From Rhizodiscina lignyota (lineage: Eukaryota), in NCBI GenBank assembly GCA_010015805.1, contig ML978124.1, positions 1,178,001 to 1,242,000 on the forward strand: a DNA stretch of 64,000 nt, in the 5' to 3' direction. Below are positions 4,971-53,036 of the stretch, in pieces. The first letter of the stretch is position 1. Every line of letters starts with the position of its first letter. A model generated the notes under the pieces. It had not been told where the DNA came from. It saw nothing but the letters and a program-made list of their open reading frames with translations, and did not search any database. A program made the translations under genes and the position numbers.

Positions 4971-6716
4971 ATGTCGGGTTTGGACGTGGCCGCCGGAGCC
5001 GCCGGACTTCTTGGTTTTGCATTTCAGTCCTTTAAAGGCTGCATTGAAGCTTTCGAATTCTGCCAAGATGCGCAGCGTATTGGTCGGGATGGCGACTTGC
5101 TAAGAGTGAAACTACAGTGGGAGCAGTTGCGATTGATTGAGTGGGGCGAGCGAGCAGGCATCGTGGGTGTTGAACCTTCTCCCGTGGAACGGCTCAATTG
5201 GCAGATGGCCGTGTCATGTCTGCAACAGCAAGAAGCTCTTCTCACATCTGCCGAGAAACTGAAAGACAGATACGGTTTTGATGTGGTCGAAGAAGTCAGA
5301 CCTTTCATACCTCCGAACGATGGCTCATCTCCTTCCGGCCTTCGACGGATCATACAGCGCAGGATACCAGACTACTTTAATGCGAAAGCACGATTGATAC
5401 AGGATCGCAACAGCACAGGAAGGCGGATCCGTTGGGCAGCAATTGACAAAAAGAAAATGCGAGAGATCATCGCAGATATTGCCGAAATCAATCTCCGCCT
5501 TTATCAAGTCCTTGAATCTCACGAGCGAGAGACGTTACAGAAATCCCAAGTCGCTCTGATTCGGGATTTGATATCGAGTAGCTCCAGTACCGACGAGGTA
5601 GAGGAAGCTCATCAAATACTCGATCCTCGAACATGGCAGAGTGATCAAGCTCTTGATGCTGCGACAATCTTGAAAAAGATACGCCTCGTCATTGGTTTCG
5701 ACACAAGGGAGGATGAATGCGTTCCTGAGACCGGAGAAGAGTTGACACCATTGAGAAGATTGAAGATGCGAAAGCTCTGTGCTATGAGCTCTAAGAATCT
5801 GGGCTGTACCGGAATCGAAATGGCCGAGTACAGCGGCAAAGCTGTTGTAGTCGAATGGCGGTCGGTCTCCGCCTCCCTTTGGCAGCAAATGGAGCGGCGT
5901 ATATGGCTCCTAGCAAAGCTATTGAGCGCTGTGAAAGATCCATCATTTCACACGCTGCAATGCAGAGGCTACCTGTCAGTACAGGATGAGAGCCTCTTTG
6001 CGCTTATATATGACGTCCCCGTTGGTGTCCCGAAATCCATAAGCACGCCGCTGCAAGTATACAGCCTTCAGGAGGTAATCTTGAAGCGGTCAAACTTGTC
6101 ATTACGCGAAATATTTCGTCTAGCTGAGAATCTTGCAGAGACAGTATTGTCGCTGCACACGGCAGGATGGCTCCACAAATCGATTCGGCCCGGCAATATC
6201 TTATTTGTTTCGCAGGATGAGCCTGCAACGGTTGATGTCGTCTTCAGTGGCCCATTTCTTGTTGGTTATGGGTATTCTCGTCTGAGCAGGCCCGATCAGT
6301 CGCTTGTGACGGAGCTCCCGGATACCTTCCTGCGCGCCGATCTATATCGCCACCCCTCTGCAAGGGGGCTCAACAGACTACCCTTTAGAAAAGCTTTCGA
6401 TCTTTACTCTCTTGGATGTGTTTTAGTGGAGATAGCATTTTGGAAGAGCCTTGTGGAAGTGATATCAAAATTTTCAGACAGCGACTTCCCCGCTGCGCTG
6501 CTGAAGGCAGAGCAAGAAGAGGCTAATCTCGAGCTTCCTTCGCTCCTGAGTTTCAGGTCTGATCAAGCACGATATTCGGGATTGCTCCATCATGTTGGAG
6601 TCTACTACGCCGAAGCTGTAGAGCTGTGCTTCTCACCGGAGCTTGTAGATGAAGATGAGATTTGGTTGGACGTCCATGCCAAAATTGTAGAGAAGCTGCG
6701 TCAGTGTTGCTGTTGA
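4971..6716 (+). CDS. HeLo (prion-inhibition/HET-S-like) domain plus C-terminal pseudokinase, 581 aa, intronless
   Basis: The N-terminus MSGLDVAAGAAGLLGFAFQSFKGCIEAFEF...LRVKLQWEQLRLIEWG matches the HET-S HeLo pattern, and RRIRWAAIDKKK is typical of the end of HeLo. The kinase-fold motifs are degenerate: VVVEW, HKSIRPGNILF, LVGYGYSR, YRHP, DLYSLG. Confidence 0.9.
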   Translation: MSGLDVAAGAAGLLGFAFQSFKGCIEAFEFCQDAQRIGRDGDLLRVKLQWEQLRLIEWGERAGIVGVEPSPVERLNWQMAVSCLQQQEALLTSAEKLKDRYGFDVVEEVRPFIPPNDGSSPSGLRRIIQRRIPDYFNAKARLIQDRNSTGRRIRWAAIDKKKMREIIADIAEINLRLYQVLESHERETLQKSQVALIRDLISSSSSTDEVEEAHQILDPRTWQSDQALDAATILKKIRLVIGFDTREDECVPETGEELTPLRRLKMRKLCAMSSKNLGCTGIEMAEYSGKAVVVEWRSVSASLWQQMERRIWLLAKLLSAVKDPSFHTLQCRGYLSVQDESLFALIYDVPVGVPKSISTPLQVYSLQEVILKRSNLSLREIFRLAENLAETVLSLHTAGWLHKSIRPGNILFVSQDEPATVDVVFSGPFLVGYGYSRLSRPDQSLVTELPDTFLRADLYRHPSARGLNRLPFRKAFDLYSLGCVLVEIAFWKSLVEVISKFSDSDFPAALLKAEQEEANLELPSLLSFRSDQARYSGLLHHVGVYYAEAVELCFSPELVDEDEIWLDVHAKIVEKLRQCCC

Positions 6717-47931: not shown

Positions 47932-48744
47932 ATGGCCTCAACTTCAACTTCCGCTCCAGCACTTCTTTCTCAGCACGTCCATGATGGGAAGTCACACCTC
48001 CTTCTTTGTGCCTCGGGTTCAGTCGCTACGATCAAGATCCCGAACATCATCACAGCTCTCTCACATCACCCTCGCCTCTCCATCCGCCTGATCCTCACCG
48101 CCCCGGCCGCTCACTTTCTGGCTGGCCAAGCAGCCGAGCAACCCACGCTCTCTTCGATCCGTGACTTGCCAAACGTCGACGGCGTGTATTTGGATGAAGA
48201 TGAGTGGGCCGAGCCGTGGAAAAGAGGTGGGAAGATCCTACACATTGAGCTGAGGCGGTGGGCGGATGTCATGGTCGTCGCGCCTCTGAGCGCAAATACT
48301 CTTGCCAAAATGGCAGGCGGGCTATGTGACAATCTGCTCCTGAGCACGATGAGGGCGTGGGATACCACGGGCTTGATTGACGGGCTACGCGTCACGCGAG
48401 AAGAGATGGATGGGAGTGGCAGTGTAGATGGGGAAGAAGAGGCTACACCAGATGCAGCGGCAGAGCAGGCGGATGGCAGGGCTGTTAGTGTGACTGCGAG
48501 GAAGGTGATTGTCGTCGCGCCTGCGATGAATACGGCTATGTGGAGCCACCCGGTCACAAAGCAGCATATGAAACTTCTTGAAGGGGAGTGGAATGTCGAG
48601 AATGGCGGGTGGATACAAATCCTCCGGCCAGTGGAGAAAGAGCTGGCTTGTGGCGATACGGGTAGTGGTGCTATGGCGGATTGGAAGAGCATTGTGAAGG
48701 TTATTGAGGAGGGGCTTGGCTTGAAGAGCAGTGGCTCAACCTGA
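47932..48744 (+). CDS. Phosphopantothenoylcysteine decarboxylase (HFCD flavoprotein)
   Basis: SGSVATIK, LHIELRRWAD (catalytic His), APLSANTLAK, PAMNTAMW and LACGD (catalytic Cys). Confidence 0.93.
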   Translation: MASTSTSAPALLSQHVHDGKSHLLLCASGSVATIKIPNIITALSHHPRLSIRLILTAPAAHFLAGQAAEQPTLSSIRDLPNVDGVYLDEDEWAEPWKRGGKILHIELRRWADVMVVAPLSANTLAKMAGGLCDNLLLSTMRAWDTTGLIDGLRVTREEMDGSGSVDGEEEATPDAAAEQADGRAVSVTARKVIVVAPAMNTAMWSHPVTKQHMKLLEGEWNVENGGWIQILRPVEKELACGDTGSGAMADWKSIVKVIEEGLGLKSSGST

Positions 48745-48899
48745 GTGGCCTCGTGAAGGAGATTTCGAGTCTGATCAACTCTTCTACTACTAGTACGACC
48801 TGCACCATGTGGCATAAGGAATCCCTCATCCGTCGGTTTTCGGTGCTCCGTGTATCCAGTTACGCTCCTCAACCACGGTATTGGAGCAACGCTGATCCG

Positions 48900-49409
48900 C
48901 CAACAACAGTCGTTCCCATCTGTCTCTCCACCAGTAGTTCAAGATATATCGATCTTGCAAACATCTTGGCTATTGGACGAAAACCTCCGATACCGAAGGA
49001 AAAGAGCCGACTCAACGGTCAGCGGCCCATATATCTGCAGTCAGCCGGGCAGCCATGGTCGTGAAGATTCGATGTGCCAATGGAACCCGACAATATAAGA
49101 GCGAAGAAGCGAGCGACGCGCAGAGGTACGAGCAAAATTGGATCAATGAGTGGGACATGCGGTTCAAATTCTGCGGGGATTCCTCCTCCTGGCGAGCAGC
49201 CTGGGTTTCGAAAGTTCGATACGACTTCGTCGGGCGCCTCCTCAACGGTTCCTCTCGAACTTGGAAATCGTAGCATCTATCGCCATCTGTGTTTCGAAGA
49301 CGACCTGCCACTCAGTGTTGCAATTTATCCTCGATGTCGCTGCTTGGCCTTTGGGTCCTTCGCAGGCATTAAATTACGCTGGGTAGATGCATTATCCGGG
49401 CAGTCGCTT
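48900..49409 (+). pseudogene. Degraded fragment resembling a conserved fungal F-box-associated protein region
   Basis: RSIYRHLCFEDDLPLSVAIYPRCRCLAFGSFAGIKLRWVDALSGQSL (49269-49409) resembles a motif I recall from ascomycete F-box proteins (RSxYRxLCSxDDPPRSVAICPQRRCVAFGCxxGIELHWVDALTGQ). There is no coherent gene structure, and similarity stops abruptly. Confidence 0.45.
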
Positions 49410-49443
49410 GATTGCCCAAAAAAGGAGAGAAAAAGAGAAAAAG

Positions 49444-49453
49444 AAAAAAAAAA
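49444..49453 (-). terminator. Oligo-dT Pol III terminator
   Basis: Ten consecutive T on the minus strand 16 nt after the B-box, followed by further T-rich tracts to about 49418. Confidence 0.6.
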
Positions 49454-49596
49454 GTGTTTGTCCATTACCGGGTTTGAACCCTAGACCTCCGGATTACCCG
49501 CGTTGCTCAAGCGCTACTAGAAGAGGTTAACGTGTAGATGTTCTTTTCAGATTAATTTTGAAACGCACAAGACAGACCAGAATGCCCGAAGGCATT
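49444..49596 (-). ncRNA. Candidate RNA polymerase III small RNA gene with apparent spliceosomal intron (49568-49517)
   Basis: 5' hairpin AATGCC-TTCG-GGCATT (49596-49581), intron-like GTGCGT...GTTAAC...TTCTAG, B-box GGTTCAAACCC (49480-49470), T10 run (49453-49444) and an upstream TATA. Confidence 0.65.
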
Positions 49597-49611
49597 AGCT
49601 AGTAAAACTTA

Positions 49612-49624
49612 TTTTATATATATA
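49612..49624 (-). promoter_or_regulatory. TATA box of the candidate Pol III gene
   Basis: TATATATATAAAA on the minus strand, starting 28 nt upstream of the 5' hairpin. Confidence 0.55.
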
Positions 49625-51268
49625 CACTGTAACACTTATCGAGACGTTAGTTCTGCAGTTGATTATGTTTGGAATTGGATACTAACGGACCTGCTATTCA
49701 CTTACTCAGCCCTCGGGCAAGACCTGGACTTTAGAGACCAGTATGTCTTCCAAGAGATATCTTGTACGCGGTCAAGGACATGGTCTCTATCCTGAAAGTC
49801 CTGCGCTAGGCCTGATTTGGACCATTGACATAAGAAAGGGCGTACGGGCTTCAATCGGCTGTCGTCGGCTCTTGAAGCTTTATACTCCGCGGAAACCCAT
49901 TATTTAATAATCTACAATAATATTGATGACTGCGCTCGCTCATTTTCACCTCATATCGCCTCTTTATCGCAACCTCTTGAAGCGTTATGTCGCGCAAGAC
50001 GTGTTCTTCGACACTTCCTTGTAAATACATACTCATCAGCATCCCTAAATTTTCCAACCGTCGAATCGGAGTCAACCATAAGATCCCCGACAATATTCAT
50101 GAGTTAAGGCTGTAAGACTAGATATAATGTCCTTTACCAGAAATCTTATCGAAGTATAACTACACCTACCTCTGCTTCTAATATAGCCCTTTCTTGCTAT
50201 TTCCTCATGCGACCTTTGTGGTTCGTGTTCGTAAATTTCTCCCCGCCTATTATGCAAGGACTTGGAACGAATTAAGCAGCTTCATCTCGGAGATCTGATC
50301 CTTTTATATCATTATTTCATGTGATGTACTTCATCAACAGTCGGAAGATTTCTACGCTCAGAAGGTTTCATCAAGCTGTTTCGGATATATCCTCTCACAC
50401 CGTTGCCGTAGAGTATCTTGCATAGTTTCCATGCTGATGCCAACATAGTCAATCGGGACGCATTGAAAGAGAAGGCAACTACGGGATATCGGCAGTCATT
50501 TGAAATTAGTTTGCTCCGACTTTAAGCTGCAACACCATGCAGCATGATTGTAAGCATCGTGACACTCATTGTGGAGTGCTCGTCTGGACAGGGTTTGGCG
50601 ATTCCACATGGAAAACAGTTTTGTGACGCCCCGCAAAAGAGCTGTCCTGCACCCCATCTCTCACCCGCCACCTGTCAGGCCACTCGCTGCTCAGAATTTT
50701 TTCGGCACTAAAAAAAGGCGGAACTTAATCCGCATTTGCACCACCATCCGGCCTCGGATTTGATGTCGGCTGGTCAATTCGGGAAGAATACTGCGAGGAT
50801 TTTGCTCACAGCGACCTGGTGTATGGCGAAAGGAATCAACGAGGCTCGGTCACAGCCCTTAATGTACAGATTCATCATCCTGTATACAGATCCAGGACTC
50901 CGCTGGAAGGACGAGTAAGCTTATTGCTAGGGACCGATGAAGATCGCCGGCGGAAATCGACCGAAGGAGCACTACCCCGGTGGGGAATGCTAGCTTGGCG
51001 CTGTCCACATGCAGCAAAACGTCGTTGCTCGTCGCCGTGCTCGGCTTGTCGGCCAGGTGGAACAGCGCGCTGGGAGGGTCACATTGTGCACCTGCAGGTC
51101 GTCTTAAAAGGCTCACTCGCACCCACTTCGTAAATGCCGTCGCTTCGCTTTCTGTCAGCGGGAGAAGGTGGATGCTTAATATTTAAGCCGCCGTAGCACT
51201 CGGGGCGTTGATTTGGGGTCTGAACACATCCTTGTTCATGATGCAGTTCTTCAAAGAAAGTGGGTAGA

Positions 51269-53036
51269 ATGGCAAGGCCTGTAAATCGTAATTTTGACAA
51301 TTTTGCAGAGCAGAACGGCGACGCCGAAATAGAGGACCAGCAGCCTCCAAGACAGAATGGCGAATATGGGGATGGTACGCCCATCTACGACGACGATCTC
51401 CATGTTCAGTGCCCTCCACATACCACCGAGCGAAAGCTAGTGAACAAGATTGATTTCCGAGTACGATTTGCGAATACTGCTATCCCATAATAAATGAGTT
51501 GACAATGACTAGGTGATCCCATGTCTCTGCATCATGTATCTTTTGGCCTTCTTGGACAGGTATGGCAAAGATATTTTTACTGTGCGGAGAGCTAAGCTCA
51601 TTTATATCTCGCAGAGTGAATATCGCGAACGCCAATGTCTTCCGCATGTCGAATCCGGATCAGCTCAATTTGACTGGCGTCAAGTACAATAATGCGCTAG
51701 TCATCTTTTTTGTCCCATATGTTTTATTCGAGATCCCGTCCAACATCCTTCTTAAGAAGCTTAAACCGAATTGGTGGCTTTCGGGATGTATGTTCATGTT
51801 TGGTCTCACCACCATCTGCCAAGGACTAGTATCAAACTACAGCGGTCTCCTAACCACGCGCTTCTTCCTGGGTCTGTTTGAGACTGGGATGTTTCCGGGC
51901 TGTGAGTAGAATTGATTTCATCTGTGGCTTGTATACGAAGTCACGGTCCGGGCCGCATGCTGACACGAAATGCCCCCACACAGGCTTCTATCTTATTGGC
52001 ATGTGGTATCGCCGTCATGAGGCTCAGCGTCGTTATACCTTCTTCTTCAGCAGCACGACGCTCGCTGGTGCGTTTGGTGGCCTGCTTGCCAGCGCCATCG
52101 GCAAGATGGACGGCATGCGTGGCTATGCGGGCTGGCGCTGGATCTTCATCCTCGAGGGCACTCTAACCTGCGTAGTCAGCTTCTTTTTCTTCTTCTTGCT
52201 GCCCGTCTTCCCCGAAGATGCGAAGTGGCTCACGCCGGAAGAGAAGCAGTACGTTAAGGCGCGTCTGTATGCGGACCAGGGCAGGAGTGCGGCGGAAAGG
52301 GCGATCACAGCGAGTGATGTACGGAACGTCTTCAAGGATGCAAAGGTCTTTGTCGGCGGCTTCATGTACTTTGGGCTCATTGTCACTGCCTATGGGTATG
52401 CGTACTTCTCACCAGGCATCATTCAAGGGTACGGCTACAGCCCGATCCAAACGCAGTTGCATAGTGTGCCACCTTGGGCTGCAGCTTTCGGATTTGCGAT
52501 GGTCGTCGCATACGTTTCGGATAAGTTTCGCCACCGCTTCGCATTCGTCGTACTCTGTCTTTCCGTGTGCATTGTGGGCCTTGGGATGCTACTCGGTATC
52601 ACTAAAAACACGCATACGGAGTATGGCGCGCTGTTCTTGGTGGCCAGTGGTGCCTACTCTGCTATGCCAGTTGTCGTGTGCTGGTTCAACATGAACCTTG
52701 GTAAGCTATCAACGGCCTCACTCTCGTACCGCTTCGCTGACAAGGACTACAGGCGGCCATCACCGACGCAGCATAGGCAGTGCCTGGCAGATCGGATTCG
52801 GCAACATCGGCGGAATTATTGCTGTCTATGCCTTCCTAAAGAAAGATGCACCGAAATATGTGCCAGGATACAGCATTGGCATCGCGTTTTGTTGCATGAG
52901 TCTGCTGACGTCTGCGCTGTACTTTGCCATGTGCGCCTATCAGAACAGGAAGAGACAGAAGACCGTCAGTCATCTGACAGACTATGAAAAGACGGAATTG
53001 GGCGATCTGAGTCCGGATTATCGCTATCTGCTGTAG
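51269..53036 (+). CDS. MFS transporter, anion:cation symporter (Dal5/Tna1-like) family, multi-exon
   Basis: ERKLVNKIDFRV, LAFLDR.NIANA, FEIPSNILLKK, RFFLGLFETGMFPG, GWRWIFILEG and the terminal LGDLSPDYRYLL*. Confidence 0.92.

Follow-up and report, generated by a model that had tools for sequence, protein, structure and literature searches.

The question raised by this locus is what kind of unit occupies about 180 bp on the minus strand of the Rhizodiscina lignyota genome, where a TATA-like element, a small hairpin, an intron-like segment, a B-box-like sequence and a long T run follow one another. The analysis covered a stretch of 64 kb, referred to as the window throughout. In the initial annotation the element had been described as a single, distinct RNA polymerase III (Pol III) gene with a U6-like 5' end, a spliceosomal intron and a tRNA-like 3' end. 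About 2.5 kb separate its two neighbours, a gene for phosphopantothenoylcysteine decarboxylase (PPCDC) and a transporter gene. Of 26 ORFs over 48708-51487 that were searched against Pfam, 25 gave no match and one gave a match below threshold.

By direct reading and motif scan, all motifs listed in the annotation were found on the minus strand of 49624-49444, in the order and spacing described (Table 1). The hairpin starts 28 nt past the first T of the TATA element, and cUUCGg, an exceptionally stable loop, is read on the minus strand, which is also where the T run and the better B-box match are found. The element thus carries a TATA at -25 to -30, a B box and a terminator of at least 5 T's. 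The predicted sizes, about 143 nt unspliced and about 91-97 nt spliced, agree with the measured segment lengths. For an A box, expected 30-60 nt ahead of the B box, the best candidates were TAGCGCTTGAG (49517-49507) and TAGCTAATGCC (49603-49593), each of which agrees, in a match made by eye, with 5 of the 9 specified positions of the consensus TRGCNNAGTGG.

Table 1. Features of the element and of the repeat to which it belongs (positions in the window).
Feature	Position	Strand	Basis or remark
TATA-like element (TA)5AAA, TATATATATAAAA	49612..49624	-	motif scan; doubles as 5' edge of repeat
Hairpin AATGCC-TTCG-GGCATT, 6 bp, UUCG loop closed by C-G	49581..49596	-	direct reading
CTGGTC	49575..49580	-	motif scan; within variable linker
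GTGCGT, candidate 5' splice signal	49563..49568	-	motif scan
GTTAAC	49526..49531	-	motif scan
TAGTAG, tandem AG	49514..49519	-	motif scan
B-box-like GGTTCAAACCC, candidate TFIIIC site	49470..49480	-	consensus GGTTCRANNCC; 16 nt before T run
T10, Pol III-type terminator	49444..49453	-	at least 8-9 T's inside repeat
Variable linker including CTGGTC	49569..49582	-	5 of 7 substitution sites among copies
Intron-like segment GTGCGT/GTTAAC/TAG-TAG	49514..49568	-	52 nt (first AG) or 55 nt (second AG)
Repeated unit, TATA into T run	49445..49626	-	contig breaks, depth, loose ends
Upstream extension, common to one other copy only	49627..49686	-	substitutions at 49636, 49641, 49646

The rarity of the individual motifs was estimated by counting them on both strands of the window (128 kb). 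T runs of at least 10 occur once, as the T10 of the element, and runs of at least 6 occur 24 times; GGTTCRANNCC is matched twice, by the B box of the element and at 5176; and the hairpin of the element is the sole perfect one that has a TTCG loop and 5 or 6 bp in its stem. The loose intron pattern GTNNGT...[CTG]TRAY...YAG with a length of 45-75 nt has 58 candidates and is present in 3-4% of 143-nt windows. The combination of motifs is far in excess of chance. No second copy of the element was found within the window, where it is single copy.

For comparison with known RNA families, Rfam covariance models were searched against the genomic, i.e. unspliced, sequence. At gathering score there was no match in the window, and at E values up to 10 neither U6, nor tRNA, nor any plausible family was found on 49350-49720. 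The two halves were also searched alone, again up to an E value of 10: the 5' 76 nt (49555-49630) gave no match to U6 (RF00026) and the 3' 81 nt (49440-49520) none to the tRNA model, nor did either half match any other plausible family. Neither the ACAGAGA box, nor the AGC triad, nor the internal stem-loop of U6 is present in 49444-49624 by direct reading. ARAGORN reported 0 tRNA genes in the window and nothing in intron mode on 49300-49800, and a tRNA with an intron was rejected on these results. Direct reading places GGTTCAAACCC outside any T arm, with 2-3 bp possible and a 5-bp T stem impossible, and leaves too little sequence after GGGTTCAAACCC for a selenocysteine-type or other anticodon arm. 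A box C/D or H/ACA snoRNA was likewise rejected, as there is no C box and no two-hairpin fold. Covariance models, ARAGORN and direct reading therefore agree with the earlier statement that the element is neither U6 nor tRNA. With each half failing to match its model, the terms 'U6-like 5' end' and 'tRNA-like 3' end' find no support as statements of homology; in the absence of a model match these labels describe gene anatomy. Folding energies, compared with those of dinucleotide shuffles, gave z scores of +0.55 and +0.50 for the unspliced sequence and of -0.14 and -0.10 for the two spliced forms, so that none of these forms, unspliced or spliced, folds more stably than its shuffles.

In anatomy the element resembles fungal U6 genes (RF00026): both have a TATA some 30 nt ahead of the start, an RNA that begins with a 5' stem-loop, a B block, and oligo-T as terminator. 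In fungi the use of TATA, A and B blocks by U6 genes is flexible, the B block of S. pombe U6 is contained in its intron, and U6 is the Pol III transcript known to carry an mRNA-type intron (PMC5855946). U6 can also be multicopy in fungi, with up to 20 copies per genome in some species (PMC5855946). Unlike U6, the element is devoid of the ACAGAGA box, AGC triad and internal stem-loop, does not match RF00026, and has its B box in the 3' part rather than past the terminator or inside the intron. Rodents have genes for small Pol III RNAs in which A and B boxes are combined with a TATA-like box at -31/-24 (PMC10137851, PMC7279448), and Aspergillus fumigatus has low-copy SINEs of 140-493 bp that are related to tRNA and 5S (PMC5063351). 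The element resembles rodent 4.5SH and 4.5SI and AfuSINE2/3 in being short, low-copy, lineage-restricted and dispersed (PMC10137851, PMC7279448, PMC5063351), and in having a B box, a TATA-like box at about -30 and a T-run terminator. It differs from them in that no tRNA-, 7SL- or 5S-related head is detectable, neither a clear A box nor a target-site duplication was found, its B box sits towards the 3' end, and an intron-like segment is present.

Copies elsewhere in the genome were surveyed at 80% likeness with the contigs of one public DNA run (X1), quite possibly the source of the assembly. These are 31-mer contigs with an expected overlap of 30 nt and a single-copy depth of about 150-160. 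The element breaks the short-read assembly graph at its locus: of the contigs carrying the element's flanks in the window, one stops at 49474 and the other begins at 49589. A 105-nt contig has a depth of 686, equivalent to about 4.4 copies; it shows no difference from the window over 49460-49550 and, given a 30-nt overlap with the flank contig, would extend to about 49446. Per-position depths of 839 at 49516, 853 at 49557, 1129 at 49608 and 931 at 49624, compared with the single-copy depth, correspond to about 5-7 copies in the genome. A peak in bin depth of 2623 over 49523-49543 (within an elevated region at 49523-49564) is most simply attributed to double counting of overlapping contigs at a branch.

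On the TATA side, likeness to the window ends at 49624 in three other contigs and at 49626 in a fourth; the loose-end consensus of the former three agrees at 0.62, about the level of unrelated sequences, and at least 5 other contigs bear flanks different from those in the window. One copy extends further, to 49686; its alignment spans 49539-49686 and contains 10 mismatches and an 8-nt gap, the latter reflecting a shorter TA repeat at the TATA element. Another copy is unlike the window below 49500 and hence is without B box and T run. Beyond the T run the sequence of the other copies is masked as low complexity, which makes the 3' limit less firm than the 5' limit. Overall, the copies in the X1 contigs are 90-100% identical. 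The limits of the repeat, 49624/49626 and about 49445, coincide within about 2 nt with the promoter-to-terminator span that had been predicted from motifs, and since they were obtained independently of the motifs they define a discrete unit bounded by the TATA element and the T run. The notion of a single distinct gene has to be given up in favour of a family of about 5-7 copies that are dispersed in the genome, with flanks unrelated to one another in the X1 contigs, which reopens the reading as a SINE or mobile element. A SINE had been dismissed on the grounds of the retained TATA and intron; as this TATA lies inside the repeated unit, it is no argument against mobility at the DNA level.

Some features of the surroundings are recorded here in their own right. 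A second, separate repeat is located at 49250-49370 (with likeness perhaps to about 49400), about 75 nt from the T run; two X1 contigs match it at about 81-89% (13 mismatches over 121 nt and 14 over 73 nt), and one loose end is still window-like for about 12 nt more. Following T10, positions 49402-49443 form a long minus-strand pyrimidine tract (purine on the plus strand). In filamentous fungi, CT-rich tracts often precede Pol II start sites, and this tract may be part of a neighbouring promoter and not of the element. On the other side, 49627-49712 is intron-like on both strands (GTAAGT...ACTAAC...CAG on the minus strand, GTTAGT...TACTAAC...CAG on the plus strand), and further upstream of the element, where genes are sparse, an imperfect inverted repeat is formed by 49706-49740 and 49781-49815, with 35-nt arms that are 71% complementary and 40 nt apart. 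As to the neighbouring PPCDC gene (47932-48741, plus strand), one JGI relative exceeds 80% identity, on a 1192-nt contig. The public Rhizodiscina lignyota protein is identical to the product encoded in the window apart from 17 missing residues (48391-48441), which makes the host this Dothideomycete or a fungus that cannot be told from it. The gap implies an annotated in-frame intron of 51 nt, GTCACG...GAAGAG, with no obvious branch site; an error of annotation could account for it, as could an intron that is retained or optional.

Hallmarks of known classes of mobile elements were sought in the repeated unit. The best terminal inverted repeat has 7 nt, a score reached by 237 of 500 shuffles, and the best direct repeat between the flanks of this copy, as a candidate target-site duplication, has 4 nt; a MITE was rejected for want of both features. 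On the plus strand the unit has the look of a solo LTR, with TG...CA ends at 49455-49626 and a preceding purine tract. Judged from contig overlaps, the A run at this end is common to all of the approximately 4.4 identical copies, and the sequence further upstream is here single copy; a solo LTR was rejected on this basis, and also because the window holds no second copy. The combination of a plus-strand hairpin and CTAG suggested a Helitron end, a candidate discarded because the repeat runs 22 nt past it. The dispersed multicopy state would suit a tRNA-derived SINE, but no recognisable tRNA head and, at this copy, no target-site duplication was found. Introner-like elements of Dothideomycetes share with the element the fungal class, the multicopy state, full splice signals and short-intron size, but they are introns in unrelated protein genes with hundreds of copies (PMC4457414). 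Here, the unit of about 180 bp overruns the GT-AG segment on both sides and has about 5-7 copies; an introner-like element was thus discarded, with the repeat at 49445-49626 extending far past 49514-49568.

Relatives outside the genome were sought in metagenome contigs. An exact 23-mer from the invariant 3' part had 0 matches. A two-block pattern, consisting of the hairpin core and the B box separated by a gap of 87-117 nt, was found at 4 metagenome loci (L001-L004); these show no likeness outside the two blocks and no Rfam match, and were treated as chance. The hairpin-core string was found in the literature in unrelated constructs only, and in the literature surveyed on Pol III RNAs and SINEs of filamentous fungi, on introner-like elements and on U6 introns no such element is described.

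The differences between copies come from a small sample of related copies and are to be taken as a hint only. Substitutions were observed at 7 sites (49569, 49573, 49578, 49579, 49582, 49557 and 49608). Five of them fall into the 14-nt linker, one into the intron-like part (49557) and one into the spacer (49608); this clustering has p = 0.002 over 179 nt and p = 0.015 over 98 nt. The region 49446-49526 has 0 substitutions, its sole change being a 1-nt deletion at 49516 in one copy. Half of the differences between copies are transversions. The hairpin core GCC-UUCG-GGC is constant, while a change at 49582 disrupts the outer A-U pair in 2 copies. UGGUC, which had been listed as a U6-type feature, is restricted to this copy, or to this copy and one identical copy, as 49579 is a C (CCGGUC) in all three other contigs that cover it. 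The proposed closing stem of UGUCUU with AAUGGACA is broken in two copies (49573, 49569), with no compensating change seen.

Exon 1 (28 nt) has 5 variable sites, compared with 1 substitution, besides the 1-nt deletion, in the 55-nt intron-like part (Fisher p 0.015-0.03), and exon 2 has 0. The expectation of conserved exons around a variable intron was accordingly not borne out, the intron-like segment being as conserved as the rest, which leaves the exon/intron reading without support from the copies. The pattern fits poorly with a neutral intron between constrained exons, and also with a neutrally decaying repeat. A minus-strand ATG at 49595 in the hairpin opens a short frame (49595-49484) with 9 codons in exon 1, which comprises 19 codons if spliced at the second AG and 21 if unspliced; most differences between copies alter its amino acids (L>P, I>N, C>Y), which makes a coding role improbable. 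By its signals, the 52- or 55-nt segment has the order GT, branch site and AG and an intron size suited to the host, the inferred introns of neighbouring genes having 51 and about 76 nt. Even granted that the unit is transcribed, removal of this segment by the spliceosome, as suggested by these signals, is doubtful.

We tentatively prefer, at somewhat less than an even chance, the reading that the repeats constitute a lineage-specific dispersed family of putative Pol III-type transcription units on the minus strand, which are neither U6 nor tRNA. Each unit of about 180 bp would be a self-contained Pol III transcription unit reaching from TATA to oligo-T on the minus strand. TBP/TFIIIB would bind the TATA at about -28, initiation would take place near 49595-49593, on a purine at the base of the cUUCGg hairpin, the B-box-like GGTTCAAACCC may be recognised by TFIIIC, and Pol III would stop in T10, releasing a U-terminated RNA about 145 nt long. 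By analogy with the rodent 4.5S RNAs and similar Pol III RNAs, the family may sit between a gene family and a SINE. The Pol III reading is suggested by the order and spacing of the motifs, which are those expected of a TATA-dependent Pol III gene, and by T10, UUCG hairpin and B box each being unique or nearly so in 128 kb. The coincidence of the repeat limits with the promoter-to-terminator span, together with unrelated flanks on the TATA side, points in the same direction, as do the lack of inverted ends and of a target-site duplication and the uneven substitutions (p 0.002-0.015), unlike neutral decay. What counts against it is that no relative outside this genome was found in the metagenome contigs searched, that no Rfam family matches, that fold stability is ordinary and no A box is convincing, and that one copy, cut at 49500, has no B box and no T run. 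Near-identity that includes the TATA-to-start spacer and the intron-like part, along with sharp ends and unrelated flanks, also counts against it, as this is the pattern that a recently mobile element gives. From the 60 nt of additional upstream sequence in one copy it follows that some of the spread took place by segmental duplication. A far more specific version, in which a Pol III small RNA family with a spliceosomal intron has members differing in a 14-nt single-stranded, candidate guide stretch after a constant capped-type 5' hairpin, is distinctly improbable.

The foremost rival, rather unlikely in our estimate, treats the unit as a non-autonomous mobile element of small size, SINE-like or of unspecified class, whose Pol III-like signals serve propagation or are incidental and which makes no stable functional RNA. 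Under this explanation the TA repeat and the T run as ends are happenstance. About 5-7 copies with 90-100% identity, sharp ends and unrelated flanks are what it would produce; it also accommodates identity across spacer and intron-like part, and the lack of a structural signal and of an Rfam match. Sequences of about 180 bp are small enough to escape repeat-induced point mutation, which suits this explanation, as does the share of transversions among the differences. A precedent is given by the low-copy tRNA- and 5S-related SINEs of 140-493 bp in another ascomycete (PMC5063351). Nevertheless, this copy has neither target-site duplication nor inverted ends, a tRNA- or 5S-like head is missing, the B box is at the 3' end and not in a 5' head, and the strand of the B box has no A-rich or simple-repeat tail; moreover, a copy made via RNA would lack a promoter upstream of the start, and the substitutions are clustered rather than even. 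Functionless intergenic DNA that was segmentally duplicated, with the motifs a chance assembly found by a motif-seeking reader, is a still less probable explanation. It is in line with the 60 nt of upstream flank shared by one copy and with the lack of structure and of homologues, but it has to account for several individually rare elements co-occurring in the right order, and for repeat limits that equal the outermost motifs in at least 4 copies with unrelated flanks.

Two further explanations are very improbable. The 3' signature of 'stringent' LINEs is a stem-loop plus a short tandem-repeat tail, and the plus strand of the unit resembles such an end, its stem-loop (49581-49596) preceding a (TA)n tail (49615-24) by about 25 nt; the unit might represent the 3' terminus of a non-LTR retrotransposon or of a partner SINE, with copies 5'-truncated at different points. 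The (TA)n end is common to all copies, the number of TA units varies (the 8-nt gap in one copy), and the cuts at 49500 and about 49445 have the pattern of 5' truncation. However, at least 4 identical copies share the A run at the supposedly truncated end, a target-site duplication is missing, the 26 ORFs scanned nearby (48708-51487) yielded no reverse-transcriptase or other domain, and on this strand the loop is CGAA instead of UUCG. T10, B box and UUCG loop, each rare in the window, would then be three coincidences. Least probable of all is that the unit is part of a Pol II transcript that was duplicated along with it, namely a last exon or 3' UTR, a 19-codon mini-gene or a long non-coding RNA. 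An intron-like GTAAGT...ACTAAC...CAG does end at 49627, directly upstream on the minus strand, although this 'intron' is ambiguous, being equally intron-like in reverse complement, and the loose ends of other copies are unlike the upstream exon candidate. Similarly, the TATA at -28 equally suits Pol II, the GT-AG pattern is uncommon by chance (3-4% of windows) and the frame from the ATG at 49595 is extended to 19 codons by splicing at the second AG, yet the changes in this frame are mostly non-synonymous and no ORF over 48708-51487 has a Pfam match above threshold.

If the preferred Pol III units are transcribed, they would constitute a new, lineage-specific entry among the few Pol III products of filamentous fungi that are neither tRNA nor 5S, and might join U6 as a second Pol III transcript on which the spliceosome acts, which, if true, bears on how introns enter non-coding RNAs. 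If the family is instead mobile, it would represent an unusual element of about 180 bp with its own TATA, no inverted ends and no tRNA or 5S head, and would merit a place in the repeat libraries of Dothideomycetes. Under either reading, it is an element that Rfam and tRNA finders miss.
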